44,876 nucleotides of DNA from Escherichia phage Haito_Bas83. Positions 11,741 through 39,786 of the stretch are shown here, one piece after another (position 1 is the first letter of the stretch; each line of letters opens with the position of its first letter). A program made the translations under genes and the position numbers. The stretch lies in the sequence record PQ850604.1. One strand, written 5' to 3'. The notes under the pieces are model-generated. The model was not told where the DNA came from. It did no database searches and saw nothing but the letters and a program-made list of their open reading frames with translations.

Positions 11741-11925
11741 AAGCGGGACGGATCGGGACGTCCCGATTTGTCCCGTTTTGTCCCGCCACCTGCAAAACTG
11801 CATACCTACTCACTTTCATTGCATAAACTAAAAGCGGGACGAGCGGGACGTCCCGATCCGTCCCGCCCCTAAATGTGCATACCTATTCAGATTTCGTGCA
11901 TAAAACAAACGGGACAGAAAGCGGG
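11741..11925. repeat. tandem ~95-bp imperfect direct repeat with palindromic CGGGACGTCCCG core
   Basis: Copy 1 at 11741-11830 and copy 2 at 11834-11920 share GCGGGAC..CGGGACGTCCCGAT..GTCCCGCC..TGCATACCTA(C/T)TCA..TGCATAAA. Confidence 0.5.
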
Positions 11926-12065
11926 ACAAACATGGGGCGGGACAAAGCGGGACAGCACCCCGTCCCCGTCAGTGCTGCCGCGGGTTTTAGCCGATCGGGA
12001 CAAGCGGGACAAACCCCAGTCTTTCAGACTAGACGGGGGTCAATGGCCCCCCTCGTCTGAGACTG
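11910..12065. repeat. composite element copy A: GCGGGACA iteron array plus conserved long hairpin
   Basis: Direct CGGGACA/GCGGGACA repeats at 11910, 11921, 11937, 11947, 11995 and 12004, and a hairpin at 12017-12065; near-identical to 39629-39786. Confidence 0.6.
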
Positions 12066-12133
12066 AATAAGGTTTGTTTGAAATTCGCTGATACAATGTC
12101 AATCGGCAACTGCATAAAAAAGGGGACTGCATA

Positions 12134-14779
12134 ATGGCAGATCAAGCAGCAGGCATCACGCTAAAGGCGGATGTTGCACAAATCAGAACGGCGAATACGG
12201 TGCTGGACTCATTCGCGCAGAAGTCCGAGAACACCGAAAACAAGGTTAAGAAATTAAACGACACACTCGGCAACACGAAAAAGGTGACGGGTGACGCCGC
12301 GGGCGGAATGGGGAAGCTGGCAACTGAATCGCAGCGCGCCGCAGATGGCATGACGAAGCAGGAGCGACTTGCCAACCGCTTAGGCATGTCGACTAAAAAC
12401 CTGGGCTTTGCCTCACGTAACGCCGCATTTCAGTTACAGGATATTGCGGTCACGCTAGAGATGGGTATGCCGGTGCACCGCGTCATGATTCAGCAGTTAC
12501 CGCAGTTAACCGGGGCATTCGGAGGACTGGGTAATACGCTGCGTTATGTTGCTGGCTTTCTCGGTCCGGTAGGGATCGGCCTTGCTGCGGTAACGGCGAC
12601 GTTAGGTGTAGGCGTGGCGATTACGTCCCGCGCAGAAAACCAGGTAGCGGCGCTGAATAAGACGCTGGCGCTATCCGGTAATATCTCTGGCCTCACCGCT
12701 AACCAGATCCTGGTGCTGTCGGAGAACGCCGAACGCATGGGCGGGTCATTCAGCAAGACGCGTGACACAATTCAGGCACTGGCGGCAGCAGGTGTGAAAG
12801 CGGGTGCTGACTTCGGCGCACTGGCGAAAGTGGTGAACGACTTCGCGAAGGTGTCTAATCAGCCGATCGCGGACGTGGTGGAGTCCATCTCCAAATTGTC
12901 CAACGACCCGGTGGGCGGATTGCGCGCACTGGCGGACAAGTATCACGTCGTTACCGAGGCGCAGATCCAGCAGGTGCAATCCCTGGTGACGACGGGCCGC
13001 GAAACCGAAGCGGTGGCGTTGGCTAACAAAACAGCCGCGGCGTCGTTCACCAGCATGACCAACGAGATCAAGTCCAACATGGGTACGCTTGAGCGGTCAA
13101 TGAACGTCGTCACATCGGCAGCCAAATCTATGTGGGATGCCATCCTGGATGTGGGCCGCGCGCAGTCCTCGAATGAGTCCGAGATGAAAGCGCGTGAATC
13201 TTTGCAGCGCATGACAACGGCCTACTATGCCGAGATGAAAGCGGTAAACGCTGCCGGTGGGGTAATGACCGAGGCGCAGAAAGCACGAATTAACATGCTT
13301 TATAGCGAACTGGTCGCCCAGGAGAAAGTAGTAGCGTCACTCACCCTGCGCAACCGTGCTGAGCGTGACAACGCAAGCGCCGCGGACAAATCAGCGAAGG
13401 CGAACGAGGAGGCCAACCGCACCGCCCGCGACCGCGCCGCGTTCGAGAAGGAATTTGCCACCAACGCGCAGAAGCGCGCCGACGAGATCGCCCGCCTCAA
13501 TTTGCTGAATAAGCGCGGTGTGATTAACGAGAAAGAACTAGCCGAGGCGGTGAAGCAGGTCAACGAGCGCTACAAAGACCCCGCACCGAAGAAGGCGGCG
13601 GCTATTCGCGTGGATGCTGGTGTCAAAATGCTGGAGGTCGCACGGAGCGAACTGGCGCAGCTTAAGGAGTCCGGCAAGCAGATCGAGGCCAATGCGACAA
13701 CGCAGACCCGCACGCAGCGCGCACAGGCCGCGTTGAATAAGCTGGTGGCGGATAATGAGCAGATGGTCACAGCAAGCAAGGAGCGCACACTAACGGCAGC
13801 AGAAAAGCAGCAGATGGCGGAGTTCGAGGCGGTTAAAGCAGTACGCGAGCAGATCGTCGAAGAAGCCAAGTTGCTGGACGCGAAAGAGAAGCAGATCAAG
13901 GCACACGCCCAGGTCGAGGCATTCATCAAGAACCAGAACGCTGAGCTAAGGGCCACCGCTGCGGGCTATGCGCTTTCCACTCGCGAAGCGGCTAACCTGC
14001 GCGAAGAATTACAGCTAATTGACCGCCTTCAGCGTGTCGGCGCTAACGATACTGATATTGACAACGCGGTGTCTAAGCTGCGCGAAGTGCAGGAAGCACA
14101 GACCGGTGCTAACGCCTCGTTGTGGGATGGCTTCAGCCGCGGGCTTAAGGATAGCGTGGATGAAATGGGTAACGGCTACACGCAGATGACGTCACTCACA
14201 AAATTCACGTTCGGCGCTATGCAGGACACGATGAACAAGTTTTTCGAGACGGGCAAGCTGAGCGCGAAGGATATGGTTAAGTCCATCCTGAGCGAATTAA
14301 TCAAGCTGGCTACCTCGCAGGCGTTCAAATCCATCGTTAGCGCTTTCGGCGGTGACGGCGGCAAAAACGGATTGTTCGGCGCTATCTTCTCGGGCCTCAC
14401 TAAGAACGCAGACGGCGGAGCGTACGCAGGAGGCAATCTAGCGGCCTATTCCGGGCAAGTGGTAAGCCAGCCTACCTTTTTCAGTTATGGCGTTCAGGCG
14501 TTCGCTAAGGGCGCTGGATTGATGGGTGAGGCCGGACCCGAGGCCATCATGCCACTGAAGCGCGGGCCGGACGGGAAACTGGGCGTTGCCGCTGCCGGTG
14601 TTGGAGGGGGTGGGATGATTGTAACGACCAACGTGAACATGGGGACCGGTAAAACGGACACCAGTGTGAGCGGACCGGACCCACGCACCGCGCAGGCGTT
14701 CGGCAAGCAAATCACCGAGTCGGTCAAGGCTGAGATCGTGAAAGCGACGAAACCGGGTGGAGTACTTTACAAACGATGA
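12134..14779 (+). CDS. tail tape measure protein
   Basis: 881-aa helix-rich ORF downstream of G/GT with a Gly-rich C-terminal region; canonical position. Confidence 0.8.
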   Translation: MADQAAGITLKADVAQIRTANTVLDSFAQKSENTENKVKKLNDTLGNTKKVTGDAAGGMGKLATESQRAADGMTKQERLANRLGMSTKNLGFASRNAAFQLQDIAVTLEMGMPVHRVMIQQLPQLTGAFGGLGNTLRYVAGFLGPVGIGLAAVTATLGVGVAITSRAENQVAALNKTLALSGNISGLTANQILVLSENAERMGGSFSKTRDTIQALAAAGVKAGADFGALAKVVNDFAKVSNQPIADVVESISKLSNDPVGGLRALADKYHVVTEAQIQQVQSLVTTGRETEAVALANKTAAASFTSMTNEIKSNMGTLERSMNVVTSAAKSMWDAILDVGRAQSSNESEMKARESLQRMTTAYYAEMKAVNAAGGVMTEAQKARINMLYSELVAQEKVVASLTLRNRAERDNASAADKSAKANEEANRTARDRAAFEKEFATNAQKRADEIARLNLLNKRGVINEKELAEAVKQVNERYKDPAPKKAAAIRVDAGVKMLEVARSELAQLKESGKQIEANATTQTRTQRAQAALNKLVADNEQMVTASKERTLTAAEKQQMAEFEAVKAVREQIVEEAKLLDAKEKQIKAHAQVEAFIKNQNAELRATAAGYALSTREAANLREELQLIDRLQRVGANDTDIDNAVSKLREVQEAQTGANASLWDGFSRGLKDSVDEMGNGYTQMTSLTKFTFGAMQDTMNKFFETGKLSAKDMVKSILSELIKLATSQAFKSIVSAFGGDGGKNGLFGAIFSGLTKNADGGAYAGGNLAAYSGQVVSQPTFFSYGVQAFAKGAGLMGEAGPEAIMPLKRGPDGKLGVAAAGVGGGGMIVTTNVNMGTGKTDTSVSGPDPRTAQAFGKQITESVKAEIVKATKPGGVLYKR

Positions 14780-17551: not shown

Positions 17552-20500
17552 CGATTATCTACGACGTCACGGGCCATAAAGGCGGCGGTGGCAAACAGCA
17601 CACCCCACAGGAGACGCCTGATAGCCTGCATTCGCTGGCTAAAATCCGCATCTTGCTCGCACTGGGCGAGGGCGAATTTGAAGGCATTCCCGACCCTAAC
17701 GAATTACGGCAGCGTGTATACCTGGACGGCACACCGATCCAGAACGCCGACCTGTCGGATAACTTCCCCGGCGCGCGCGTGGAGTTCCGCCCCGGCACGC
17801 AGCACCAGGATGTGATTCACGGTTTTTCAGCGGTGGAAAGCGAGCAAACAGTAGGCGTAAAACTGGAACAGGGACAGCCGTGGGTCCGCCAGATTTCGGA
17901 CACCAGTCTGGACGCGGTGCGTATTCGAATCGGTATTCCGGCCCTGTACACTAACGAAGATAATGGCGACCTGGTGGGCGGGCGCATCGACTATAAAATC
18001 GTTGTGTATACCGATAACGCCGATCCGCGCGAGTTTACATTCGCTGCCGTTGGTAAAACAATGTCGCTGTACGAGCGGGACCACCGCATCGAATTACCGC
18101 CGAACGTTAACACCGGCTGGCGCGTGGAGGTGCACCGCACAACGGCAGACTCCACATCGGCGAAAGTGGTCAACGATATCCAGGTACAATCCATTACTGA
18201 GATTATCGACGCCCGCCTGCGTTACCCGCTAACCGCGCTGTTGTTCGTGGAGTTCGATGCTAAGGCGTTCCAGAACATCCCGCGTGTGTCCATCAAGTGC
18301 AAAGGCCGCAAAGTGCTAGTACCGAACAACTATGACCCCGTGAATCATACCTATTCTGGTAACTGGGACGGCACATTTAAACGCGCCTGGACGGATAACC
18401 CGGCATGGCACTGGTACGATATTTGTATTACTGAGCGCTTCGGCCTCGGTCGTCGTGTCAAGCCACAAATGCTAAACCGTTACGCGCTCTACCAGATTGC
18501 GCAGCGCTGCGATCAGATGGTCAGTGACGGCAACGGCGGACAAGAAATCCGCTTTAAGAATGATATGTACATTCAGTCGCAGACCGACGCCTGGACCGTG
18601 CTGAAGGATTTAGCGGCAATCTTTGCCGGTATGACCTGGTGGGGCAACCAGATGTTGAATATCGTCAGTGACCAGCCGGTCGCCGCGGTATCGCATACTA
18701 TCACCAACGCCTCGGTTATTGATGGTCGATTCGACTACGCATCGGGGAGCCAGAAAACTCGGTATTCCACGTTCTCGGTAGCCTACGGCAACCCGAAAAA
18801 CCATTACGAGGACGCCATCGCAACGGGCCAGCGTGTCGAACTGGTGCGCCGCCATAAGATTAACCGCCTTGATATCACGGCGATCGGCTGTACGCGTGAA
18901 TCTGAAGCGCAACGCCGCGGGCACTGGGCGCTAATCTCCAACCAGCTTGACCAACAAGTTAGCTTCAAGGTTGGCATGGAGGGGTTATTCTTTATTCCGG
19001 GGAGCGTAGTTGCGATCGCAGATACTAACATTTCTGGCGGCTTCGAGACACGCGGCGGACGTCTGTTGTCTGACCCGGGCACGCGCACCGTGCTGAACAC
19101 AGACAGCGAAATCACGTTCCGCCCTGGTGATAAATTCCTGGTGCGCACCAATAGCGGTAATGTGGAGACTCGCGAGATTGCCAGCGTCAACGGCAACCAG
19201 GTCACACTAAAAACCGCACTGGACGCCGACCCTATTCCAGACCAGCCGTTTTGCGTGGATGGCGATGATATCCAGTTGCAGAAGTTCCGCATCACCGACC
19301 TGGAATATGACGACGCTACCAGCACTTTTTCGGTGCGCGGGATTGAGTACAACGATAGCAAATATGATGCCGTTGATAATGGCGCGCGTCTTGATCCGGG
19401 TATATTCACGCAAGTGCCAGACGGCGTAATGAAGGGACCGGAATCCGTGACCATCACCCCGTCGCAGATTTCATCACAAGGCCAGCTAATCACTAACGTG
19501 GATATTGTATTCCCACCGGTGAAGGATGCCGTTGTGTACGAAATCCAGTGGCGACGTACCAGCTTGCAGAATCTGGAAGTACAGTGGGGCAACGACTGGG
19601 TGAACATCCCCCGCACGGCGTCGAACGGCGCGCACATCCCGAACGTGTTTTCGGGTAACTACCAGGCACGCGTCCGCGCTATCGGTATGGGCGAGATTTC
19701 ATCCCCGTGGGTGTCATCCGCCATCACGCCGGTGGAGGGTCGTCTTGGTGGGCTTAACGCGCCTATCATCACCAACGCGATTTCGGGCCTTCACCAAATT
19801 TTGTGGAAGTGGAACCACAACAACGCCGCGACGGATATTTCGTATACCGAGCTTGAAGTGCGCAAGCTGGGAGAAACGGAATGGAAATTCCTAACCAACG
19901 TCCCATATCCTGGGTCGGACTATGCACAAACGTCGCTGGAGTTCGGGATCTATCAGCAGTTGCGCGCGCGTGTAGCGGATAAAATCGGCAACCTGTCAGA
20001 CTGGTCCGATCCGTTCGACGGGCAGGTGAGTGACAAAGTTGACGAGTACATGCAGGGGCTTGATGACGAGTTCTTGACTTCCGAGGACGGTAAACACTTC
20101 CAGGAAGCAATCGACACCATTCCGCAAGGCATCTATGAGTCAATGCTTACGGACGCCCAGCAGTTATTCAACGCCCGCGCCGAGTATAAAGGGATTTATG
20201 CGGAAATTACGGTGGCGTATAACGTGGCGGCGGATGCTCACGAAGCCGTAGCGCAACTGGAGACGTTGATCGGCACGCGCCTTGACGATGCGGAAGCGTC
20301 AATCCACACGTTGCAGACAGCGCAAAGCACGCATGAGCAAGCATTCGCCCAGTACCAACAAACTGTTGCCGCTAAGTTCGGGGAGCAGGAAGCTGCCATC
20401 CAGCAGGTACAAACGGCAACGGCAGACGTAGCTGGCGCGCTGGCGGAGTATAAGACCCAGGTCGCGGCACAGTTCGGACAGCAGTCCGCAGCTATCGAGC

Positions 20501-20994: not shown

Positions 20995-21002
20995 ATGCGA
21001 AG

Positions 21003-21024
21003 GGGCCAGATGGCCCCTTTTTTA
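21003..21024. terminator. rho-independent terminator after J
   Basis: GGGGCC-AGAT-GGCCCC plus TTTTTT; the convergent minus-strand gene ends at 21022. Confidence 0.6.
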
Positions 21025-29665: not shown

Positions 29666-29669
29666 ATCT

Positions 29670-29930: not shown

Positions 29931-30104
29931 TTATTCTTGTTCTGCGCGATAGCGGCGCTGCCGATCACGTTCTTTCTTATTGCGGCACGATTTGCACTCG
30001 GCCCGATGCCCGTCTGGACTGCGCGCAGTCTTTCCGGTGTATTTGTGGAACTGGGATAGCGGCTTGATGCAGCCGCAGTTACTGCAACGTTTTTCTTCAA
30101 TCAT
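29931..30104 (-). CDS. small zinc-ribbon protein (putative)
   Basis: Start MIEEKRC with GAGGA RBS; CSNCGC...CKSC cysteine pairs; basic C-terminus. Confidence 0.4.
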   Translation of the reverse strand: MIEEKRCSNCGCIKPLSQFHKYTGKTARSPDGHRAECKSCRNKKERDRQRRYRAEQE

Positions 30105-30144
30105 TTCTAAAATCCTCGATAGGGCTAACCGGCACACTATACCG

Positions 30145-30423: not shown

Positions 30424-30611
30424 TTGGTTTGCAACTCCACGTTACGCAGACGGAGGTCTACCGGTATGTCCGATCGACCGGTTAGCGCCAGCGCCAGGTT
30501 TTCAGGCGTGACAAGTGCCGTAATGGTCTTGCCACGTTCCAGTCTAATGACGATTCGAATCTCGTCATCGTCCGTCGCGCCAGCGCGCATTATGCTTAAT
30601 TCTGCTTTCAT
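30420..30611 (-). CDS. hypothetical protein
   Basis: 63 aa from MKAELSIM; stop overlaps the VRR-NUC start; starts 4 nt after the polymerase stop. Confidence 0.35.
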   Translation of the reverse strand: MKAELSIMRAGATDDDEIRIVIRLERGKTITALVTPENLALALTGRSDIPVDLRLRNVELQTK

Positions 30612-30615
30612 AATC

Positions 30616-32907
30616 TTACTTCCTGTACCGATACATGATGTCGCCTTCGGCGGCAAGTGGGAAACCTTTCGCCCATATAGGCAGGTCACACATCAGCGCG
30701 CAAAGCTCCTCGGTCGTGTAATCGTCGGTGTCCGGCACTTCGGTGATCAATTCATCGTGCACTGACAGGACGATTTCATAGCCCGCAGCTTCAACACCAG
30801 GCATGGACCATGCGAGAATATCGCGGCACAACGCCTGTACTATGTTCTCCGTAAGTTTGCCGCCGTAGGTGTACTGGAATCCCCACTGGCGCGTCGTCTG
30901 ATTCTCGCCCTGGTATTTGATGCGAGTGCTGGTGCGCTTCTTGCCGGTGTCTTCGTCAATCTCGGTAGTGACAGACAGCGCGATGCCCGGATAGCTCATG
31001 ATGCGCCCCGACGGCAACTCAACCTTCAGCCACCAGCCCGCCGCGTTCGGGTCGTCGCGCTCCTCGTCGAATGTTGGGTCGTGCTTCGCCTTCGTGCGCA
31101 CAATCTTGAGCGCTTTCTTGCCATCCGGGCGAACGTTCGCGCCAGCCCAGTATGCCTTACCCGGATTGCGTATTGCACATAACACCGCTTCCTCAAGCTC
31201 GGCCCAAAAGGCTACGGTCTTCGGGTGAGACTCGCGCCACATCCTTTTGATCGCGTCGCAGGTCAACCACACGTTTTTAGGCAGTATGTAAGTCGGGCGC
31301 TCGTCTTTCTTGCCGGGCTTCGGCGGGCGCTTCGCTTCGTTGATGCGGGCAAACTCATAACCGCGTTTAGCCGCCGCCCAAATATGATCGGGGAATGTTC
31401 CCTTCATGACGTCAGCCATTGCGTACAGGTCGAGGCCCAGGTTTTTAGCAAACTGCAAGAACGCCGCGACGCCGCCACCATAGCCCAGTCCCAATTCACA
31501 CGCCTTACCAATCTGGCGTAGGTCTTTGCGGTTGGCTTTGATGTAGTCCGGGTCAAGGCCAAACATCTTACCGGCAGTTTCACAATAGATATCGCGTCCG
31601 GCCTTAAACACCATAAGCGCGGTTTTCTCGCCAGCGATCCAGGCAAGGCCACGCCCTTCCACGTTGGAGTAGTCCGCTACAACAAACTTCTTGCCCTTAG
31701 CCGGGATAATGCACCCGCGAACGGTCGAGGCGGTTAGCTTCGATATGTCATACGCCCAGTGCGCGGTCCCGCGTAACAGGGAGTTGATGCCGTTGGTGAG
31801 CATGTGCGACCGTACCCAAAACGAGACGTCGCTCTCACCTTCGCGGCGCTTAATCTTCCCTTCGTGGTCATCACTGTACTCGCCACGTGCCAGGTTTTGA
31901 GGCTGAAAGCCTTTACCGGCCCAGCGTAGTGTGCGCTTTGCCCCACCATACTGAAGACAACCACGGCGGCGACCATCGGCAGAAAGACCATTGACGAGCG
32001 GATTGTATTTAGTCGATGCCGTTGATGACGCGCCGAGGCGCATTTCAATAAGCACTTTGCCCTCGTCGGGGAAGTCTGGATCTTCCAGTAGGTCATTCAG
32101 CGTGGATTTCTGCGCGTTGTGAATGGTGAACGCCGGGGCGATATCGCGCAGGATTGGCAGGAAGTCATTGCCGGTCAGCTTACCGCCGAACAGTTCCCAG
32201 GCTTCTTCCTTCAATTCCTCTTTATGCACCTGCACCGCCTTGATCGCGGCGTTCGCTAGGTCAACATCCACATAGAAACCGCGGTCGTTAATCAACTGGT
32301 CGATAAGCAGGATTTCGTCTTCCTTCGGGGAGTTGCCCCAGTCCGGTATTCGCCAGTAGACTTCACGCATTGCGATAATATCCAGCGCGGCATAGCGCAG
32401 GAATTTAGCCCATTCTTCAGGGTGAGTCTCGCGCGTGTAGCGGCGGATTTTGTAGGTCTTAGGGGTCGGCTTACAAAATCGCTTAATCAGCGCCTTGCCT
32501 GCCTTATCCTTCGCGTGCTCTGCGTCAACGCCCAGCACCTGGCATTGCATATCGAGGCCACCCGGCAGCGCGTGACGAAAGGCCATAATCATCGTATCTT
32601 CGATCTGGCTTACCGGCAGGTCGATGCCCCACTTTTCACGGATAACCAGGCGGTCAAACAGGAGGCCGTTAGCCATCACTATTTTTGCTTTCTTGCGGGT
32701 TACCTGGCGTAGCGCCTTGCGCAGTTCACGCGGCATCGTGGGGGATTCAGTGGCGTCCCATGTCTGCACGCGGCCCTCGTCGATGGCGTAGGTGCAAATC
32801 ATAATCTCGGTGGATGGGTGTTCTGCATAGGCATACGCACCTGCTTTCTTCAGGTCCACCCCGCTATATGTCTCGGTGTCAAGAAACAGGCGTTCGAAGT
32901 CTTTCAT
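30616..32907 (-). CDS. DNA polymerase, family A, with 3'-5' exonuclease domain
   Basis: Exo I FLDTETYS; Pol motif A DYSNVEGR; motif B RQIGKACELGLGYGGG; motif C VLSVHDELI; 763 aa. Confidence 0.85.
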   Translation of the reverse strand: MKDFERLFLDTETYSGVDLKKAGAYAYAEHPSTEIMICTYAIDEGRVQTWDATESPTMPRELRKALRQVTRKKAKIVMANGLLFDRLVIREKWGIDLPVSQIEDTMIMAFRHALPGGLDMQCQVLGVDAEHAKDKAGKALIKRFCKPTPKTYKIRRYTRETHPEEWAKFLRYAALDIIAMREVYWRIPDWGNSPKEDEILLIDQLINDRGFYVDVDLANAAIKAVQVHKEELKEEAWELFGGKLTGNDFLPILRDIAPAFTIHNAQKSTLNDLLEDPDFPDEGKVLIEMRLGASSTASTKYNPLVNGLSADGRRRGCLQYGGAKRTLRWAGKGFQPQNLARGEYSDDHEGKIKRREGESDVSFWVRSHMLTNGINSLLRGTAHWAYDISKLTASTVRGCIIPAKGKKFVVADYSNVEGRGLAWIAGEKTALMVFKAGRDIYCETAGKMFGLDPDYIKANRKDLRQIGKACELGLGYGGGVAAFLQFAKNLGLDLYAMADVMKGTFPDHIWAAAKRGYEFARINEAKRPPKPGKKDERPTYILPKNVWLTCDAIKRMWRESHPKTVAFWAELEEAVLCAIRNPGKAYWAGANVRPDGKKALKIVRTKAKHDPTFDEERDDPNAAGWWLKVELPSGRIMSYPGIALSVTTEIDEDTGKKRTSTRIKYQGENQTTRQWGFQYTYGGKLTENIVQALCRDILAWSMPGVEAAGYEIVLSVHDELITEVPDTDDYTTEELCALMCDLPIWAKGFPLAAEGDIMYRYRK

Positions 32908-33074
32908 TGCTTTATCCTCACTACTGCGTCAGCGCTGCCGATCATGGAGAAGATACCATCCGACAAGGCAATCTCTTCGCCGTTGTTGCGAATCTCGGCA
33001 ACGGTAAAATACTCGCCCAGCAATTTGGACCATACACGCATTCCGACTTTTACTTCACTGGCTTTAATACGCAT
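32904..33074 (-). CDS. small hypothetical protein (56 aa)
   Basis: ORF MRIKASEVKVGMRVW... whose TGA overlaps the polymerase ATG (ATGA); not in the track. Confidence 0.35.
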   Translation of the reverse strand: MRIKASEVKVGMRVWSKLLGEYFTVAEIRNNGEEIALSDGIFSMIGSADAVVRIKQ

Positions 33075-33085
33075 TTTTCATTGTC

Positions 33086-33113
33086 CTAATAAAAAGCCCG
33101 CAATAAGCGGGCT
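33086..33113 (-). terminator. rho-independent terminator (minus strand) after the SSB-like gene
   Basis: Minus strand reads AAGCCCGC-TTATT-GCGGGCTT followed by TTTTT. Confidence 0.5.
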
Positions 33114-33132
33114 TGAATAGTGGGCTTTGCCC

Positions 33133-33924
33133 TTAACGGCGGCGACGTTTACGTGGTGCTTCGTCTTCGTCGTCGTCGTCGTCCTCATCTTCGTCATCGC
33201 GGGACTTGCGACGCTTGCGAGGTTTTTCGTCTTCCTCGTCTTCGTCATCGTCATCACGACGCTTGGATTTCTTGGACTTGCGCGGCTTATCATCTTCGTC
33301 ATCGTCATCACGACGTTTGGACTTCTTAGCCTTGCGCGGTGCTTCATCTTCGTCATCGTCGTCCAGGTCGTCATCGGAACAAGAAGACCCGCCGCCACCG
33401 AAGGAGTCACCATCGTCACGGAAGCGAAGACCCATCAAACCCGCACCTAGACCTTTGCCGTTGGTGTTGTTCCACGCCCAAATATCCAGGGACACGTTGC
33501 AATAACAACCGGAATAGATTTCCTGGCCTTCGATCTCGTCGCCGTTGATGGTAAGGCCCTGTTCGGTCTGCTTCTCGCCCAGTGACGTTTGGATGTTAGG
33601 CTGTTTGAACGATTTGGCGTTGATGTACAACATGCCTTCAAATTCTTCGGTTACTTCGTCGCGCTCGTCACCGTCACGAACTGCGCATTCCTTAGAATCC
33701 TGGGCGTAGTGGCGGTCCATCCACTTATCGGCGTTCTTCTCGGATTTCAGCTTGTCGGTAAGCACTGCGCGCGCTGCCGCTTCCACTTTGTCCACCTGCG
33801 GATCTTCTTTATCAAGAAGAATCACGGCACGGTATGCCGGTTTTTGTCCATCCTGTTTAGGGGTATCACGTTCCCAAATTTTCAGGAAGCATACACGTAC
33901 ATTTTTCAGGTTGACTTTAGCCAT
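33133..33924 (-). CDS. ssDNA-binding / annealing protein-like (DUF2815-like, tentative) with repetitive charged C-terminal tail
   Basis: Start MAKVNLKNVRVCF with GAGGA RBS; C-terminal ~100 aa are alternating acidic/basic repeats (DDDDEDEAPRKAKKSKRR x3); adjacent to a Cas4-like nuclease. Confidence 0.4.
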   Translation of the reverse strand: MAKVNLKNVRVCFLKIWERDTPKQDGQKPAYRAVILLDKEDPQVDKVEAAARAVLTDKLKSEKNADKWMDRHYAQDSKECAVRDGDERDEVTEEFEGMLYINAKSFKQPNIQTSLGEKQTEQGLTINGDEIEGQEIYSGCYCNVSLDIWAWNNTNGKGLGAGLMGLRFRDDGDSFGGGGSSCSDDDLDDDDEDEAPRKAKKSKRRDDDDEDDKPRKSKKSKRRDDDDEDEEDEKPRKRRKSRDDEDEDDDDDEDEAPRKRRRR

Positions 33925-34014
33925 TTTCCAATTCCTCATTTTCACATTTATCGGGGTTATTGTGAGCCACCCCGTTCGGCTTGGTTGCTAATTTACTTGG
34001 TTGCGCCTAAGCGG

Positions 34015-34257
34015 TCAAGCACTTTTATTAAAAAGATTTCGTGTCACGTAGTTGGTGGCGTTCTCGATCCAGCTTAACGGCGGGCGGTCGATGTGCTTCT
34101 CAACCCAGTCGACGGCGACGTCGCTATATCCGTCGTCCAGCCAGCGGGACGGATGGCGAATCATCCAGGCCACCATTAACACGCCTTGCACGCAATGCAG
34201 GATAAATCCCAGCGCGCCGAGCATAATCATCAATACGAATGCGAATACCTTATTCAT
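34015..34257 (-). CDS. small membrane protein (putative)
   Basis: 80 aa; N-terminal hydrophobic helix FAFVLMIMLGALGFIL. Confidence 0.4.
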   Translation of the reverse strand: MNKVFAFVLMIMLGALGFILHCVQGVLMVAWMIRHPSRWLDDGYSDVAVDWVEKHIDRPPLSWIENATNYVTRNLFNKSA

Positions 34258-35650
34258 TGCTTAAGTCCTCGTCAGTAGCTTCAGACCACGCGGGGCGCGG
34301 GTCGTCGATTGGTGCTAACACCGGTTTAGCTGGTGCGCGCGTGATTTTATCACACAATTTCGCCCACACTTTCGGTTTCTCGTCCTTCAATACCTTCTCG
34401 GCATCAGTAGGACTGAGCAATGTTTCTTTATACATCACGTCGCGCTTGATCCGGGCCTTAGTGAAGACTTCAATCACTTCGCTCTCGTCCGCCCACTTGC
34501 GATTACCTTCCTTACCGGCAACCATCTTGAGGCCCAGCGATTCGCCATCGCCCGCCATTACGGCCTTGAATACCGCGGACTCGATAGCCTTGATGTGCTG
34601 GCGCATTGCGTCAAGACCTTCATATGCCTTGCGCAGCTCCGCCGCGCTCATAGCGCCTGGTGCTTCTTCTTCTTTCTTGCCACGCTTCGCACGTCGTGCC
34701 GCTTTCCGGGCTTCGCGATCGGTAGCCTTCGGTGCTTCGTCCGCCAGGTCGTCGTCTGTTGCCGTTGGTGGGGTCATCGTGTCGATGGCGGCCTTAGCGC
34801 GGGCACTACACTGATCCGCAAATCTACACCACTGACAGGCATCAACGCTCGGTCGGAAGTCGGCACGGGTAAGTCCCTTCTTGCCGCGGGAATACGCGTC
34901 CAGTGCGTCAATAGCACGCTTGGATGCAAACTTCGCGAATATCTCCAGCGCTTCCACGGTAATATCCCACTCCGACGCCCCGCCGCAATACGGCTGGAAG
35001 ATTACCAGGCGAACGGTTGTAATGTCGTACATGGTTTGCAGCTTGCGCAGCAGGCCCAGCGCGTACAACATAAGCTGTTTGTTTTCTTTCGCCTCGACCT
35101 TATGTCGCCCGGTCTTCAGGTCGCCAACAATCAGCATGTACGTGCCGTCGGTCTTCTTCATGACCATTACCATATCGGCAGTTCCGAACGTCTTCACCTT
35201 GTTGCCGTCTATCTCGAAGCCCGGATGCAAGATGCGGGTGAGATCGGCGCGCATTTCAAGCTGTACAAACTCCGCCACTTCAAGGAGCGGTCGCCAGTGG
35301 TCGATGTACGCGTCGCACTGTTTCACCATGTCGTCGTTAACCAGCACGCCGCCTTTCGGTGCTTTCGGGTGCGCCTTTACCGGCCCCTTACCTTCGTTCT
35401 CAACGTAACACCCTTTGTACGTCTTCGCGGATAGCTTCTTCTCTCCGGCAATGATGCGGTTTAGCACGACTTCTGATACGGTGTGCATACTCGTACCGTT
35501 AATCGCAGCTTGCCCGGATTCGTTCGGGATACCTTTTTCGACTACCATGGCGGCGGGGCACCCCATCCATTTTTTAGATCCCGATGGCCCGAGTAATGAG
35601 TGTTCGGTATTACTGCCAGATTGTGTTTTGCGCTTTGGTTTAATAGCCAT
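34250..35650 (-). CDS. PD-(D/E)xK exonuclease with Cas4-like cysteine cluster (DUF2800-like)
   Basis: IVGDLKTGRHKVEAKENKQLMLYALGL core and C-terminal CQWCRFADQC; 466 aa. Confidence 0.5.
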   Translation of the reverse strand: MAIKPKRKTQSGSNTEHSLLGPSGSKKWMGCPAAMVVEKGIPNESGQAAINGTSMHTVSEVVLNRIIAGEKKLSAKTYKGCYVENEGKGPVKAHPKAPKGGVLVNDDMVKQCDAYIDHWRPLLEVAEFVQLEMRADLTRILHPGFEIDGNKVKTFGTADMVMVMKKTDGTYMLIVGDLKTGRHKVEAKENKQLMLYALGLLRKLQTMYDITTVRLVIFQPYCGGASEWDITVEALEIFAKFASKRAIDALDAYSRGKKGLTRADFRPSVDACQWCRFADQCSARAKAAIDTMTPPTATDDDLADEAPKATDREARKAARRAKRGKKEEEAPGAMSAAELRKAYEGLDAMRQHIKAIESAVFKAVMAGDGESLGLKMVAGKEGNRKWADESEVIEVFTKARIKRDVMYKETLLSPTDAEKVLKDEKPKVWAKLCDKITRAPAKPVLAPIDDPRPAWSEATDEDLSNE

Positions 35651-35829
35651 TATTCAACCCTTGTAAACTGGACAATTACATATTTCACATTAGCCAGACC
35701 TGCTTTTTCTACGCGGCGCTTAACTTCATTTTGTGCGTCCACGAAGCAATTGCTCGCGTTAGTGTTTTCCACAATAAAAGAAGTGTGGTCGTCTAAGTCG
35801 TGGCATGTTGCCAGCACGAAGAATTTCAT
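35650..35829 (-). CDS. small hypothetical protein
   Basis: 59 aa from MKFFVLATCHD with RBS GGGAGA; start overlaps the upstream stop (TAATG). Confidence 0.3.
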   Translation of the reverse strand: MKFFVLATCHDLDDHTSFIVENTNASNCFVDAQNEVKRRVEKAGLANVKYVIVQFTRVE

Positions 35830-36080
35830 TATTTCGTCTCCCAACGGTCAATTACTTTTTCCTCCGACGATACTGCAAAGCGAACATATTCTAGATTGGA
35901 GTCCGCCCAAATATAAAAGTCGGGATTAGTAAAGGTGGTGCGCTTAATTTGCGCGGGGTTATCGCGGCGTTTATCTATCACGGCAACGCGTGATTTAAAG
36001 TTGCCGATACGTTCGAATAGCCAATAATAAGGGCGCTGGTCGCGTGAATCCACCGCCTCGATTAGCGTGAAACGTGCCAT
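35829..36080 (-). CDS. hypothetical protein
   Basis: 83-aa ORF in the early operon. Confidence 0.4.
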   Translation of the reverse strand: MARFTLIEAVDSRDQRPYYWLFERIGNFKSRVAVIDKRRDNPAQIKRTTFTNPDFYIWADSNLEYVRFAVSSEEKVIDRWETK

Positions 36081-36128
36081 TGTCTCGTCCTCTAAAAATA
36101 GGCCCGCAGATTAGCGGGCCGGATAATA

Positions 36129-36650
36129 TTAATCTTCTAATTCGAAATACGTTTCTACGATTTCTTTTAAATCTTTATGGAAGTCTTCGACGTCGTCATC
36201 TTCCAGCTTGGCGACGGATTTAATTTCGAACGCTTCCAGCAGATCATCAAATTCGTCGTTTGCGTCGTCGTCATCGCCGCCTGCGATAATCGCGGCATAC
36301 TGCTTGATTTCGTCGCGCATCTCTTTCAGAGGATCGGCTTCTTTCTTGCCTTTACCTTTCGCCGGTGCTTTTTTAGACTTCGCAGGTGCTTCTTCCTCGT
36401 CCGCGTCGTCGTCTTCTTCTTCTACGGCTTCTTTCTTAGCCTTGCCCTTTGCAGGCGCTTTTTTGGACTTCGCCGGTGCTTCATCTTCAGCGTCGTCATC
36501 TTCGACTACTTCTTCTTTTGCCTTGCTCTTAGCCGGGGCTTTCTTCGCTTCCTGTTTACCAACGGCAGCGCCAGCAGTTTCGTAATGCTTAGCGATGGTT
36601 TCCAGTGCTACTACGCCGCGAGTGATCAGGTTTACGATTTGCTCAAACAT
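36129..36650 (-). CDS. lysine-rich repeat protein with acidic C-terminus (first gene of leftward early operon)
   Basis: RBS GGAGAT; three copies of (D/E)EAPAKSKKAPAKGK(A/G)KKE repeats; C-terminal DDDDANDEFDDLLEAF. Confidence 0.5.
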   Translation of the reverse strand: MFEQIVNLITRGVVALETIAKHYETAGAAVGKQEAKKAPAKSKAKEEVVEDDDAEDEAPAKSKKAPAKGKAKKEAVEEEDDDADEEEAPAKSKKAPAKGKGKKEADPLKEMRDEIKQYAAIIAGGDDDDANDEFDDLLEAFEIKSVAKLEDDDVEDFHKDLKEIVETYFELED

Positions 36651-36710
36651 GGTATATCTCCGATTGGTTAATTTAAGTGTTCGGTGCGGTATGCCCCGTC
36701 AACGAGGTGA

Positions 36711-36740
36711 ATAATAGGTTGGTTGCAGGTGGGGTGTCAA
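36711..36740 (-). promoter_or_regulatory. putative leftward early promoter
   Basis: Minus strand reads GTTGACACCCC (-35 TTGACA), 18-bp spacer containing TGCAACCAAC, then TATTAT. Confidence 0.4.
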
Positions 36741-36751
36741 CAACTAATTTC

Positions 36752-36810
36752 AAAAAAAAAGCGCCGAAGCAAAATGCGACGGCGCTAACCAATAAGAGAC
36801 AATGAGACGG
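36752..36810 (-). ncRNA. candidate small RNA or attenuator (promoter-like TTGAAA-N17-AATAAT plus terminator)
   Basis: Minus strand: TTGAAA (36844-36839), -10-like at 36817-36822, then ~55 nt ending in hairpin GCGCCG-13 nt loop-CGGCGC plus nine T. Confidence 0.25.
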
Positions 36811-36857
36811 GGATTATTATTACACGCGTGCGCGCCCGTTTCAATATACAAAAGGAG

Positions 36858-36886
36858 TTGACACCCCGCAATTTTAGGTGTAGTTT
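36858..36886 (+). promoter_or_regulatory. putative rightward early promoter
   Basis: GTTGACACCCC (-35 TTGACA), 17-bp spacer, TAGTTT; an inverted copy of the same 11-mer lies at 36731-36741. Confidence 0.4.
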
Positions 36887-36917
36887 CGTTGGTCATTAAC
36901 CAATAGGAGACAGAACA

Positions 36918-37247
36918 ATGCATATCAACGACGCAATCGAAATGTTAACTAAGACCGTTAGTTGTGAGACAAGCCGGTCCTGGGCTTATACCGATGCCGT
37001 TGGTGCGGCGTTATTTGAAATCGAACGCCTGCGCAGTGTCGAAAAAGAATTGCGCGCCAAGCTGGAATTACTCAACGGTACGGCAGCAAGCAAGCTGCAA
37101 AAACACAATGAAGAAATGGAAGAATACAAAAAGCAGGTTATCCGTTTACGCGACGAGGGCAAGTCCTGGGCGATGATTGCCGAGTTGACCGGAATTAATC
37201 AGAGCACCGTGCGCTCCTGGGTACGCAATAATAAAACTTCTAAGTAA
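36918..37247 (+). CDS. HTH DNA-binding protein (putative transcriptional regulator)
   Basis: 109 aa; helix-rich with C-terminal HTH-like KSWAMIAELTGINQSTVRSW; first gene of the rightward operon. Confidence 0.5.
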   Translation: MHINDAIEMLTKTVSCETSRSWAYTDAVGAALFEIERLRSVEKELRAKLELLNGTAASKLQKHNEEMEEYKKQVIRLRDEGKSWAMIAELTGINQSTVRSWVRNNKTSK

Positions 37248-37257: not shown

Positions 37258-39522
37258 ATGAGCTTAATTAAATTCGCAGTAACAAGACCCGCTAAAAAAG
37301 GCGAAAAAGCCAGGGCGGAAAACTTCGAGATGACCACTGATGAGTTTTTCGAATTTATCAATGATGCGAAAGAAATCTCCTCGGTGCACATCAACAAGAC
37401 TGAAGATAAAGCCGAGTATGCGCGCCGCAAGCGTAAGGCCGATGGCATCGTGGCCTATACCAATGATGGGTTACGCCGCAAGACCAGTGCGGTCGACCGC
37501 TCGATCCTGTTCTTCGATATTGACCGCACCGACACCCGCACATTACGCCGCTGCCGTAAAGCGTTCACCGACGCTGGTCTGGAGCATGTATTCCACACCA
37601 CGACCGGCGACCGTCACCCACTGAAAGGCGGCACACGTTGCGCCCGTTTCCTGGTGCTCACTGACAAGCCTGTACCGGCTGAAGACCTGGGCCGCGTCCA
37701 GTATGCGCTATTAGACCAACTGGGCCTGTCAGATGTGGACTTCGACGATTGTACAAAAGACACCAACCGCCTTATGTACCTGCCTCACCAGCAGTCTGTC
37801 ATAAAGTGCCATTACGGCAAGCGCGCCCGTGTCCGTCGTCTGCTTCGCCTGGCTGACAAGCTGGGAGTTGAGAAAGAGGAAGTGCGCCGCGAACTGACCC
37901 AGGGTGATGACGGCGTGGCGGACGGCATTCTGGATTGGTGCTTCCAGGCTGGCTTTGAACCGCTGTCATCCGGTCGCGGTTATGAAGTGCCTTGCCCGAA
38001 CGAGCACCTGCATAGTGGCGAAGGGTCGACGGCTATCATGGTTAAGGATGGCGAGATCCGTTTCAAGTGTATGCACACCGGCAACGAGTGCTGTTCCGAA
38101 CTGAACAAACACCAGCACCTGGCGCTGCGTCTGATCGGCATTCCGGACCACCTGAACGTCGAACCTCACAACATGTCACGCAAGCAAATCGCCGCCATCC
38201 TTCCGGGACTGGACGACGAGGAAGTGGAATCGTGCTATGAGCATATTGTTGATGCGGTCGGAGACGGCGACGAGTACGGCGAATGCACCGACGCTGACCT
38301 GGACAACGAGCCGGTCGCACTATTCAGTAAGCACGACCCGATCATCGAAGGCCTGGTCAACTTCAAATCGACCTGGTATATGGCTGGTGAGTCGAACATT
38401 GGTAAGTCGTTCTACGTGCTGGGCCAGATGGGTGCTGTTGCCGCAGGTATTCCGTTCGGCGGTGCGAAGGTTGTCCAGTCGCATTGCTTCTATTTCGATG
38501 CGGAAGGCGGCGAAGCCTCAAACCAGCGTAAGGAAGCATTGCAGATTAAATATGAGCACGACCTCGACAAGCTGCACATTATCGATCTGCAATCACGCGG
38601 CTGGGATATCACCAGCAAGTCCGGCTTGCGCGAAGTTATCAGCTTTATCAACCGCACCGCTAACGGGGAGCCGGTTGGCCTGGTGGCCTTCGACTCACTA
38701 AACCAGACTGTAGCGCTGCGGTCCGCTGATGCCAAACCATTCGACGAGAACAACGCCAGCGATATGGGCGAAGTTGTCAAAGCGCTGAAGTCCATTGCGG
38801 AAAATACAGGCGGCAGTGCGGGCGTCATCCATCACCCGGCTAAGGGTGCAAACGGCAGCAGATCCCCACGCGGGTCCGGCGCGCTTCATGGTGCTGTCGA
38901 TTCTGCGTTCTTCCTGGAACAGCCGGACGACAACCAGCCAGGCCAGCTTAACCTGTATCACGAAAAATCACGTAACGGCATCAAGCAAGCTCCGCGCGGC
39001 TTCGTCCTGCTCAAGTGCAAGGTCAAGGTGGATCTCCGCAAGTCTGATGCGTTCGAAGCACACCAGTCCACCAGCACCGGACCAGACTTTGGTGATGTTG
39101 TTGCCGGTTGGGACGTCAAGCCGATCGCATCCACGCCACGTGACGAGACTCTCTACCTCGTACCGGTCGCCCTGGCACCGTTCGCTATCGAACAGGCGAA
39201 GGCAGCAGGCAAGGCAGCAGTTAAGGAAGAGAACACCGCCGGACCGCGCAACGAAAAAGAGAAGGTGCTTTATGCGGCACTGGAAAAACTGATGGAAGAT
39301 AACCCGGACCATACTGGATTCAGTAAATCGGCAATTGTCCGCCAGGCTGGACTTGCGAAAGGTGGCACATCGACGAAGGCAATCGACGATATGGTGGAGC
39401 GCGGAGTGCTCGGATTTTATACAGATCCACACACTGGGGCCATCTACGGGTCGTCGAATCTGGTCATCAAATCGGATATACCCATCACGCTTTCGGCGAC
39501 CGATGACGACCTGAAAGATTAA
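37258..39522 (+). CDS. DNA primase / RecA-fold replicative helicase (primase-helicase) with C-terminal winged-helix-like region
   Basis: Walker A GESNIGKS and Walker B-like GLVAFDSL; Cys/His cluster CPNEHLHSGEGS...CMHTGNEC; 754 aa; iteron region immediately downstream. Confidence 0.6.
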   Translation: MSLIKFAVTRPAKKGEKARAENFEMTTDEFFEFINDAKEISSVHINKTEDKAEYARRKRKADGIVAYTNDGLRRKTSAVDRSILFFDIDRTDTRTLRRCRKAFTDAGLEHVFHTTTGDRHPLKGGTRCARFLVLTDKPVPAEDLGRVQYALLDQLGLSDVDFDDCTKDTNRLMYLPHQQSVIKCHYGKRARVRRLLRLADKLGVEKEEVRRELTQGDDGVADGILDWCFQAGFEPLSSGRGYEVPCPNEHLHSGEGSTAIMVKDGEIRFKCMHTGNECCSELNKHQHLALRLIGIPDHLNVEPHNMSRKQIAAILPGLDDEEVESCYEHIVDAVGDGDEYGECTDADLDNEPVALFSKHDPIIEGLVNFKSTWYMAGESNIGKSFYVLGQMGAVAAGIPFGGAKVVQSHCFYFDAEGGEASNQRKEALQIKYEHDLDKLHIIDLQSRGWDITSKSGLREVISFINRTANGEPVGLVAFDSLNQTVALRSADAKPFDENNASDMGEVVKALKSIAENTGGSAGVIHHPAKGANGSRSPRGSGALHGAVDSAFFLEQPDDNQPGQLNLYHEKSRNGIKQAPRGFVLLKCKVKVDLRKSDAFEAHQSTSTGPDFGDVVAGWDVKPIASTPRDETLYLVPVALAPFAIEQAKAAGKAAVKEENTAGPRNEKEKVLYAALEKLMEDNPDHTGFSKSAIVRQAGLAKGGTSTKAIDDMVERGVLGFYTDPHTGAIYGSSNLVIKSDIPITLSATDDDLKD

Positions 39523-39628
39523 ATTTTGCGCGCATTGGTTGCCAAATTGAGTGTTTTTAGCTGGTCGCATTGGTTGCCGTGTAGTGTAAATATAGTGAAT
39601 AGTTATGCAGTTTTATTGCATAAAATAA

Positions 39629-39786
39629 GCGGGACAAAAAGCGGGACAGACAGGGGGCGGGACAAAGCGGGACAGCACCCCTTGTCCCGCCCGGATGGCG
39701 CGGCTTTCAGAGGAGCGGGACAGGCGGGACAAACCCCAGTCTTTCAGACTAGACGGGGGTCAGTTGGCCCCCCTCGTCTGAGACTG
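39629..39786. repeat. composite element copy B: GCGGGACA iteron array plus conserved long hairpin
   Basis: GCGGGACA at 39629, 39641, 39657, 39667, 39715 and 39724, inverted TGTCCCGC at 39683, hairpin at 39737-39786; near-identical to 11910-12065. Confidence 0.6.

Follow-up and report, generated by a model that had tools for sequence, protein, structure and literature searches.

A probable replication origin downstream of the primase-helicase gene of Dhillonvirus phages and its paralogue ahead of the tape-measure gene

Dhillonvirus genomes carry two copies of a repeat-and-hairpin element, of which the one downstream of the primase-helicase gene (copy B, ~39596–39819) is probably a replication origin and the one ahead of the tape-measure gene (copy A, ~11743–12134) a paralogous second origin-like site that would bind the same protein. 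This reading is based on sequence comparison and starts from a window of 44,876 nucleotides, the nearly complete genome of the Dhillonvirus Escherichia phage Haito_Bas83 (PQ850604.1); coordinates below refer to its plus strand unless noted otherwise, and palindromic clusters and hairpins are given without a strand. We read the element as an origin rather than an operator because six phased direct repeats combined with a winged helix attached to a helicase are an origin signature. An earlier note on this DNA had offered three roles: replication origins whose iterons bind an initiator, an RNA structure with a regulatory or antitermination function, and a site of recombination or packaging. Of these, the comparison among phages favours the first, and nothing supports packaging. 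Most likely the system is of a familiar kind, in a phage group without a described origin: our literature search turned up no paper that describes one for Dhillonvirus or Guernseyvirinae.

Two copies of one element

An ungapped repeat search paired 11875–12052 with 39595–39772 at 83%, and a MAFFT alignment of 11875–12065 against 39595–39786 gave a mean column identity of 83%. The iteron GCGGGACA occurs 14 times in the whole window, against 2.17 ± 1.39 expected (no shuffle reached 14), and 12 of these 14 matches fall inside the two regions. Both copy B and the core of copy A contain six direct CGGGAC cores at roughly helical spacing, with identical start-to-start distances in the two copies (12, 16 and 10, then 9 for the proximal pair). 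These counts and spacings bear out the direct repeat array that the earlier note had described in each copy. Its exact 28-nt block (GGGGCGGGACAAAGCGGGACAGCACCCC) is likewise common to both regions, as are the near-identical hairpins (12017–12065 and 39737–39786), whose stems are the same while the loops differ (TCAATGG in one, TCAGTTGG in the other).

Copy B had been placed directly 3′ of the primase-helicase gene, and it does start ~75 bp past the stop codon at 39522. This gene (37258–39522) encodes a 754-aa protein with a primase-like N-terminal part, a RepA/DnaB-class RecA-fold helicase core, a predicted C-terminal winged helix and an acidic tail, DDDLKD. Copy B is flanked by a second dispersed motif, TTGGTTGC, two examples of which lie upstream of it (39535–39577) and belong to a dispersed, promoter-associated family. 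The element then opens with a box pair (39596–39623), consisting of the 14-bp palindromic TGAATAGTTATGCA and a TGCATAA 21 bp downstream. This pair lies in the most AT-rich patch, is conserved in lineages whose iterons differ, and is a candidate unwinding or host-factor site. It is followed by four direct GCGGGACA iterons (39629–39674), an inverted iteron on the minus strand within the GC-rich spacer (39683–39690), two hairpin-proximal direct iterons (39715–39731) and an imperfect hairpin or inverted repeat of 50 nt built around a G-run/C-run core (39737–39786; −28.9 kcal/mol when folded with RNA parameters). The distal boxes (39785–39819) comprise two TGCATAA and ACGGCAGC, which fits the ACACGGCARCA box that relatives carry.

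Copy A is located where the note had put it, with the tail chaperone region on one side and the tape-measure gene (ATG at 12134) on the other. The extent first given for it describes the core correctly, but the region starts earlier, at ~11743, where two palindromic CGGGAC clusters each precede a box pair. The first cluster (11743–11786; two direct and three inverted cores) precedes the boxes TGCATACCTACTCA and TGCATAA (11799–11826); the second (11834–11866; two direct and two inverted cores) precedes TGCATACCTATTCA and TGCATAA (11876–11903), which are collinear with the box pair of copy B. Four direct iterons (11909–11954), the first of them ACGGGACA, are followed by two hairpin-proximal ones (11995–12011) and a 49-nt hairpin with the same stems as in B (12017–12065). 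Between this hairpin and the tape-measure gene lies TGATACAAT (12089–12097), an extended −10-like sequence that is invariant in all Dhillonvirus A copies, sits ~37 bp upstream of the ATG and may act as a promoter. Finally, ATCGGCAAC and two TGCATAA boxes flank the tape-measure ribosome-binding site (12102–12134). Each TGCATAA box is one half of a larger palindromic box of 14 bp, TGMATANNTATKCA. Of the positions reported earlier for them, 12111, 12128 and 39785 stand, and 39801 was one base off (true start 39802).

Presence in close relatives had been named as a test of the element, and both copies occur in all 14–15 Dhillonvirus contigs that we examined, as well as in the 68% clade. The number of direct cores is constant over 14 genomes; the 14 Dhillonvirus B copies have six direct and usually one inverted core, two of them lacking an exact inverted copy. 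Copies A and B share clade-specific derived features and therefore appear to evolve in concert, and copy A is, by sequence, a clade-specific paralogue with additional palindromic iteron clusters. The GenBank record of Sodalis phage SO-1 already annotates both as repeat_regions, 'region A' and 'region B'. A scan of IMG/VR for CGGGAC arrays returned mostly unrelated high-GC matches and exposed the second copy in the 68% clade; a search of the phage collection found no cultured relative of this clade.

The earlier statement that no coding sequence explains the element is correct. Open frames across it have no Pfam match and are not conserved, their stop-to-stop extents differing among genomes, and the element copies differ by single-base lengths. 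Base composition shows a patch of only ~40 bp with 72% AT at 39580–39620 and one with 68% AT at 12060–12100. The Dhillonvirus inter-iteron spacer is GC-rich (30–33% AT). Cumulative GC and AT skew has extrema only at the gene-orientation switches (~24.1 kb and 36–37 kb), GC skew following only the direction of transcription, and is uninformative on origins. DnaA boxes (TTATNCACA, at most one mismatch) are not enriched, with 30 matches against 27 expected and none in the core of copy B. The GC-rich spacer, the small size of the AT-rich patch and the lack of DnaA box enrichment count against an origin.

Relatives with other iterons and the primase-helicase C-terminus

The architecture of copy B is common to Dhillonvirus and Guernseyvirinae-like phages. 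Phages whose primase-helicases are only 37–49% identical still share one succession of parts: a pair of AT-rich palindromic boxes, a run of four direct iterons, one or more inverted copies, a spacer, two further direct iterons, the hairpin and the distal boxes. The element begins no more than ~100 bp past the primase-helicase stop codon. The iterons themselves differ among lineages: GCGGGACA, ACTCGCAA, GGGGGAGA, CGGACAA, TCCGACA, AGGGATA and GGGGATGA. A further set of relatives with a primase-helicase of the same family (L021-L024 and L027) has terminators and convergent genes after this gene, with only irregular repeats 1.5–2 kb away. No plasmid in PLSDB uses the module as a replicon; the sole full-length match (34% identity) is a 44-kb E. 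coli record, CP088689.1, whose size and identity suggest that a Kagunavirus-like phage genome was probably entered there as a plasmid. The relatives lacking the element after the gene and the missing plasmid replicon count against the origin reading.

The hairpin changes along with the iteron cassette. Within Dhillonvirus its stems are almost invariant and its loops variable, two B copies having a single stem-side change. A hairpin (−21 to −35 kcal/mol) is present in every lineage, although its sequence differs from one to the next. In the ACTCGCAA clade, 4 of 29 hairpin pairs are changed on both sides and none is broken, and between the two copies of the 68% clade AGACG/CGTCT becomes GGACG/CGTCC. 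By these comparisons, the pairing of the hairpin is under selection and is kept through compensatory changes.

The part of the primase-helicase that changes with the iterons is its C-terminus, the last ~100 residues (39220–39522), which fold prediction and covariation lead us to propose as the iteron-reading winged helix and specificity module. The topology predicted by AF2 is helix-helix-helix-strand-strand, and the fold matches are all winged-helix DNA binders, with weak E-values (0.035–0.4); searching PDB sequences with the protein and a profile gave a marginal RepA match only. Nine protein pairs with different iterons are 95–99% identical in residues 1–654 and 44–47% identical in the last ~100. 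Over this segment, pairs with the same iteron share 77% identity on average (minimum 58%), against 37% (maximum 62%) for pairs with different iterons, a covariation that co-inheritance by linkage could also explain, the domain being physically adjacent to the iterons. Nucleotide identity falls at the same domain boundary and, in informative pairs, does not recover downstream of the element. The idea, raised in the earlier note, of iteron binding by the C-terminal domain of the primase is strengthened by a predicted winged helix that changes with iteron type, subject to this linkage caveat.

Other candidate readers fared less well. The 109-aa HTH protein, also proposed earlier as a binder, is disfavoured, its equivalent in relatives being identical across three iteron types. 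In detail, relatives with GGGGGAGA and with CGGACAA iterons encode one and the same small HTH protein in this upstream position, as do relatives with TCCGACAA, GGGGATGA and CGGACAA, and it was rejected as the reader because identical proteins go with different iterons. The downstream genes were rejected because they vary among genomes sharing one iteron, as between the window and L047.

Some boxes of the element are independent of lineage, and a host factor is one candidate for reading them. The ArgR operator consists of two TGAATwwwwATTCA-type palindromes with a centre-to-centre spacing of 21 bp. In GRNsp27, whose iteron is GGGGGAGA, the sequences TGAATAGTTATTCA and TGAATAGTTATTCG lie 21 bp apart with 1 and 2 mismatches to this consensus, of which PMC12219000 gives one example. 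The window has one such box with 2 mismatches and a half-site, and genome-wide counts are not enriched.

Other readings and a possible mechanism

It is unlikely that the element serves transcription control, with the iterons as operators for a phage DNA-binding protein, possibly the primase-helicase as its own regulator, and the hairpin as a terminator, attenuator or RNase III processing site. Copy B would then mark the point where the early primase operon gives way to the downstream genes, and copy A would sit ahead of the tape-measure and tail genes. In favour of this reading, promoter-like TTGGTTGC motifs occur on both sides of B, and the invariant, extended −10-like TGATACAAT lies between the A hairpin and the tape-measure ATG. 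Guernseyvirinae-like relatives have a sigma-70 promoter close to consensus ~100 bp downstream of the hairpin, a weak U-rich tract, TTATTCATT, comes after the hairpin in relatives, and canonical terminators fill the spot in relatives that lack the element right after the primase gene. However, the early promoter region (36650–36920), where an autoregulator would be expected to bind, contains no CGGGAC site. Neither Dhillonvirus hairpin was recognized as an intrinsic terminator by a terminator scan; the bases that follow are AATAAGG in A and CATAAAA in B, with no T-run, unlike the real terminators of the phage (GGGGCC..GGCCCC followed by a T6 run; family D8). Promoter and terminator scans of the A and B cores were empty apart from terminator-like matches that are only CGGGAC palindromes, the promoter scan being a two-hexamer search that cannot detect an extended −10-like sequence such as TGATACAAT.

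An improbable reading is that both loci give rise to a structured non-coding RNA, either a small RNA or leader that binds or sequesters an RNA-binding protein through its hairpin and its repeated motifs with GGA, or an antitermination element acting on RNA polymerase. The hairpin could act in RNA equally well. Its pairing is preserved by compensatory changes, the transcribed strand carries both copies, several lineage iterons contain GGA, and copy B folds far better than shuffled sequences (z = −5.8). Copy A, however, reaches only z = −2.7, and the TCCGACA and ACTCGCAA lineages have no GGA on the sense strand. Judged by G-U pairs and by plus- and minus-strand energies, there is no consistent strand preference, and often it is the complement that folds more stably. 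The whole window has no Rfam match (Rfam 15, gathering score), scans show no promoter upstream of the core, and covariation with a winged-helix domain argues for recognition of double-stranded DNA. Very improbable is a site for recombination, inversion-free exchange or terminase recognition, or a mobile cassette, for although A and B exchange sequence, as their shared derived characters indicate, and the element lies at mosaic junctions in relatives, the small terminase gene (1–552) is remote from both copies, recombination between direct repeats 27.7 kb apart would remove essential genes, the positions of the copies are fixed in all genomes examined, and the element has no associated recombinase or transposase.

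Under the origin reading, initiation could proceed as follows. The C-terminal winged helix of the primase-helicase would bind the short direct iterons (six in B), as covariation and the predicted fold suggest, and the bound protomers, by analogy with SaPI Rep and P4 alpha, would assemble the RepA/DnaB-class helicase on DNA, no loader protein of its own being needed. More speculatively, unwinding might begin in the AT-rich boxes beside the iterons or be aided by extrusion of the 50-nt inverted repeat, and the exposed hairpin might act as a loading or priming signal, like the ssi hairpins of RSF1010 oriV for RepB′. The lineage-independent boxes (two TGAATAGTTATKCA at 21-bp phasing, TTATTCA..ATGCA and ACACGGCARCA) would be read by something conserved, perhaps a host protein or a conserved part of the replisome. 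Copy A, with more sites including the palindromic clusters, may be a second origin or a cis-acting enhancer like P4 crr; alternatively, it may be a bound roadblock that stalls forks and leads to concatemer synthesis, as proposed for SPP1 oriR.

We put forward a broader proposal only tentatively: that an SF4 RecA-fold primase-helicase recognizes its own origin and loads itself there through an exchangeable winged-helix cassette, which moves with six iterons and a co-evolving hairpin and in Dhillonvirus also acts at a reinforced late-region site that programmes fork arrest or second initiation. To our knowledge, the self-loading initiator-helicases described so far (SaPI Rep, P4 alpha, pRN1 ORF904 and viral SF3 helicases) are all AAA+/SF3. 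If true, an SF4-class self-loader that uses a hairpin signal, perhaps with help from the ArgR protein of the host, would represent a solution distinct from these.

Significance and comparison with known replication systems

Dhillonviruses and Guernseyvirinae (Jersey-, Cornell- and Kaguna-like) are among the most frequently isolated siphoviruses of E. coli and Salmonella and are in wide use in phage therapy and in studies of defence systems. A defined origin and initiator would allow minimal replicons and origin-swap engineering and would help to interpret defences that target replication. The exchangeable winged-helix and iteron cassette would offer at least seven matched protein/DNA specificities for the reading of 7–8 bp sites by winged helices, and with copy A in the tail gene cluster, the SPP1-type proposal that a second origin serves as a fork trap could be tested in a phage of E. 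coli.

Among systems with related features, satellite phage P4 carries its cis-acting repeats in two separate places, ori and crr, a few kb from each other, whereas the copies described here are 17–28 kb apart. Its alpha protein combines primase, helicase and a C-terminal winged helix that binds octamer origin repeats (PMC4234260, PMC2777425), but as a Toprim primase with an SF3 helicase, and the repeats are unrelated. The IncQ plasmid RSF1010 combines iterons with ssi stem-loops in its oriV (PMC4234260, PMC2777425), and a priming signal of this kind is a speculative analogy for the phage hairpin. In RSF1010, however, the three activities reside in three proteins (RepC for the iterons, RepA helicase, RepB′ primase, with ssiA and ssiB), and the iterons are 20–22 bp long. 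In the archaeal plasmid pRN1, the primase-helicase gene is followed downstream by an origin in the form of a stem-loop (PMC4234260, PMC2777425). The gene order is alike, with a small repressor gene, the gene for a prim/pol-helicase-winged helix protein (ORF904) and then an essential stem-loop origin of ~100 nt, but pRN1 lacks iterons and its helicase is SF3.

Bacillus phage SPP1 resembles our phage as a lytic siphovirus of ~44 kb whose genome contains a pair of similar, origin-like repeat regions. One is next to or inside the early replication genes, and the other is a non-coding segment that interrupts the late morphogenesis genes. Its oriL lies in an early gene and its oriR in the late region, gp38 binds both, and the role proposed for oriR is to arrest forks and set off the change from theta replication to concatemer synthesis (PMC6316719, PMC3485210). 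The two differ in that gp38 is a separate initiator working with the loader gp39 and the DnaB-type helicase gp40, oriL is inside gene 38, no hairpin has been described, and the SPP1 regions have no sequence similarity to the element.

The pathogenicity islands of Staphylococcus aureus (SaPI) and other PICI provide a further parallel. The C-terminal winged helix of SaPI Rep reads 6–12 iterons immediately downstream of rep, and in SaPI5 primase and Rep are fused (PMC9371898). SaPI Rep belongs to SF3/AAA+, whereas the helicase here is of the RecA-fold RepA/DnaB class; SaPI origins have an AT-rich centre where the Dhillonvirus spacer is GC-rich, and they lack both a conserved long hairpin and a distant second copy. 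In the SaPI/PICI Rep-ori systems, including PriRep5 of SaPI5, as proposed here, a winged-helix helicase reads short iterons (5–6 nt) downstream of its own reading frame. The SaPI iterons also form two sets, some of them oppositely oriented, the helicase loads itself, and specificity varies among islands (PMC9371898).

Genomic setting of the two repeat elements

The window represents an almost complete Dhillonvirus genome. Its gene layout, taken from the annotation of Escherichia phage RuthEpting_Bas85, comprises rightward late genes from terminase to tail fibre (1-24070), leftward replication genes (polymerase, gp2.5-like SSB, exonuclease and helicase; 24095-36650) and, from 36918, a rightward block with a 109-aa HTH protein, a 754-aa primase-helicase, small ORFs and lysis genes. 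Canonical terminators (GGGGCC-loop-GGCCCC followed by T5-6) stand at the ends of gene blocks (4974-5003, 11017-11046, 20996-21025 and 24068-24097). Further repeats lie within genes: tandem 42-nt and 21-nt repeats (22748-22984) in the 601-aa tail-fibre gene are translated into a recurring KTDTQAIHDATDQI-type segment, heptad or coiled-coil, and GTC/GTCGTC-rich families (plus strand; 33142-33363 and 36184-36513) inside minus-strand genes underlie low-complexity repeats, Asp/Glu-rich and Lys/Ala-rich, of the gp2.5-like SSB region and of a 173-aa protein (36129-36650; PHROG 3127, function unknown).

Element B (~39596-39819) lies 3' of the primase-helicase gene (37258-39522, plus strand) and element A (~11743-12134) before the tape-measure ATG at 12134. 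Both regions are 99% identical to those of Bas85 and match about 150 related phage records. The two copies, which align at 83%, and their exact 28-nt block are located as an earlier note had claimed, and its description of identical hairpin stems with different loops was borne out; the TGCATAA boxes were also correctly positioned, apart from one that was off by one base. GCGGGACA occurs 14 times in the window (2.2 expected), with 12 of these inside regions A and B. Region A extends further than first reported, with two palindromic CGGGAC clusters from 11743, each followed by a box pair. Its CGGGAC iteron cores number 10 direct and 5 inverted, and those of B 6 direct and 1 inverted. Both elements were found in every Dhillonvirus contig retrieved (14-15 contigs), with highly variable loops and almost invariant stems (a single stem-side change in two B copies). 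The repeat itself is no new sighting, since the GenBank record of Sodalis phage SO-1 annotates two repeat regions, 'region A' and 'region B', that resemble each other and whose role is worded 'possible ...'; our literature search found no paper analysing it.

In public annotations, 'hypothetical protein' CDSs span the elements, as in PQ850624.1 (11744-12067 and 39539-39841, roughly window 11737-12060 and 39526-39828). Frames across the elements are not conserved between genomes, a Pfam scan of the window ORFs 11873-12070 and 39526-39828 gave no match, and the annotated CDSs are probably spurious. A six-codon mini-ORF (ATG TAC GGC AGC ATG ACG TGA; 39808-39828), which begins in copy B's second TGCATAA box, is not conserved either, as most other Dhillonviruses have TTGCAAAATACACGG at that place.

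Conserved scaffold, variable iterons and hairpin

We compared loci whose primase-helicases are 37-98% identical to that of the window. Most of them share a common order directly 3' of the gene: the 14-bp palindromic box TGAATAGTTATKCA twice, 21 bp apart; 3-4 short direct repeats; 1-2 inverted copies of the repeat; a spacer; two further direct repeats; an imperfect hairpin of 45-65 nt with a G-run/C-run core; the boxes TTATTCA..ATGCA and ACACGGCARCA; and, in Guernseyvirinae-like phages, a near-consensus sigma-70 promoter. The outer boxes are constant across lineages, unlike the repeat unit, which is GCGGGACA in Dhillonvirus and the clade with 68% primase identity, ACTCGCAA in the 49% clade, GGGGGAGA in Salmonella phage GRNsp27 and relatives, and CGGACAA, TCCGACA, AGGGATA or GGGGATGA in other lineages. 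That the scaffold is conserved and the repeat particular to each lineage implies a sequence-specific reader co-evolving with the repeat. In one relative (loci L028/L079, ~6440-6490), a tandem (TGGCAGCA)x6 array comes after the conserved ACACGGCAGCA box, with the sigma-70 promoter just 3' of the array. The TGAATAGTTATKCA pair, 21 bp centre to centre (window 39596-39623; 18065-18099 in the GRNsp27 locus, L046), resembles the ARG boxes of ArgR (TGAATwwwwATTCA), with 1 and 2 mismatches in GRNsp27 and, in the window, a half-site next to a single box carrying 2 mismatches; we note it as a lead to a possible host-factor (ArgR) site.

In GRNsp27, the interval from chaperone to tape-measure gene lacks a copy, and the 49% clade yields only one hairpin match per contig; in the 68% clade, a second copy lies directly upstream of the tape-measure homologue. 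Some derived features are common to the A and B copies of one clade and missing from the copies at the corresponding positions in other clades, which indicates that the two are homogenised by gene conversion or jointly selected to fit a single reader. The extended -10-like sequence TGATACAAT (12089-12097), ~37 bp 5' of the tape-measure ATG, does not vary among the Dhillonvirus A regions and may serve the distal tail genes as an internal promoter.

A second motif, TTGGTTGC, occurs 19 times in the window (2.1 expected; 6152, 16810, 22267, 25288/25300, 27203/27220, 30161, 33981/33997, 36719, 39535, 39570, 39851, 39942, 39973, 40682, 43212/43235), almost always intergenic and often paired 12-35 bp apart; five copies flank element B, and TTGGCTG stands at equivalent places in Guernseyvirinae-like relatives. 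In several cases (e.g. 30161, 39942, 27220), TTGCAx is followed 17 bp on by a -10-like hexamer, a spacing that makes the motif a probable sign of phage promoters or of an activator site. That the elements themselves constitute a transcription-control region seems unlikely.

Every lineage carries the hairpin, with a different sequence in each. Between the two haplotypes found in the ACTCGCAA clade, four base pairs are changed on both sides and none is broken, and the 68% clade has AGACG/CGTCT after the primase gene versus GGACG/CGTCC in the tape-measure copy; these two-sided changes argue that hairpin symmetry is under selection. No T-run accompanies the element hairpin, in contrast to the genome's real terminators, and the stems partly resemble inverted versions of the local iteron. 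Neither strand folds consistently better. We read the hairpin as probably acting in DNA, as a structure or site linked to the iterons, but it may also act in RNA. For the elements as a whole, RNA and recombination readings are each less credible than transcription control.

Candidate readers of the iterons

The 109-aa HTH protein, proposed earlier as a possible reader, is disfavoured by relatives in which an identical small HTH protein, encoded at the same place just 5' of the primase-helicase gene, accompanies different iterons. One such XRE-type protein occurs with both GGGGGAGA and CGGACAA, and another with TCCGACAA, GGGGATGA and CGGACAA; the Dhillonvirus protein at this place is HTH_23-type and non-homologous to these. 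Downstream genes were likewise rejected, as the window and a relative's locus (L047) share iterons and not downstream genes.

The other candidate of the earlier note, the primase C-terminal domain, fared better in that the last ~100 residues of the primase-helicase track iteron type. The proteins of L046 (GGGGGAGA) and L075 (CGGACAA) are 85-100% identical over alignment columns 1-660 and 44-51% beyond, and those of L084 (TCCGACAA) and L082 (CGGACAA) fall from 95-100% to 44-50%. Among 190 pairs from 20 loci, identity of the domain averaged 77% (minimum 58%) with the same iteron and 37% (maximum 62%) with different iterons, and nine pairs combine bodies 95-99% identical with tails 44-47% identical. 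However, the domain lies next to the iterons, and informative pairs do not return to high identity downstream of the element, so linkage alone could produce the association.

The C-terminus of all primase-helicase homologues is an acidic tail (such as DDDLKD or EDDLEN; window 39502-39519), which, alongside the PolA-type polymerase, gp2.5-like SSB and exonuclease, suggests a T7-like replisome with the tail contacting the polymerase. A full-length homologue (34% identity) was also found in a 44-kb E. coli 'plasmid' (PLSDB record CP088689.1, hit H126), which, by its size and this identity, is probably the genome of a Kagunavirus-like phage submitted under a plasmid label.

The elements as candidate replication origins

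On balance, we favour element B as an origin and element A as a second origin-like site, a reading that we hold to be somewhat probable because phased short iterons directly 3' of a primase-helicase gene, a putative winged helix that is attached to the helicase and covaries with them, and a neighbouring hairpin under selection together fit the logic of several known systems. The case is weakened by statistically weak winged-helix fold matches of the C-terminal domain, by some relatives in which the gene is followed by terminators and by no more than irregular repeats, and by the lack of a clear unwinding element between the iterons, of DnaA-box enrichment and of an informative skew.

The combination matches the logic of SaPI Rep, including the fused PriRep5 (PMC9371898), and of P4 alpha (PMC4234260, PMC2777425). 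Iterons are paired with hairpin priming signals in RSF1010, and a stem-loop origin lies downstream of the primase-helicase gene in pRN1 (both PMC4234260). Unlike these known systems, the present one has a RecA-fold (SF4-class) helicase, a GC-rich spacer and an obligatory hairpin. Element A, if it binds the protein that reads B, would find its counterpart in SPP1 oriR, the late-region member of two similar sites recognised by one protein; the role proposed for oriR is to stall replication forks and launch concatemeric synthesis (PMC6316719, PMC3485210).
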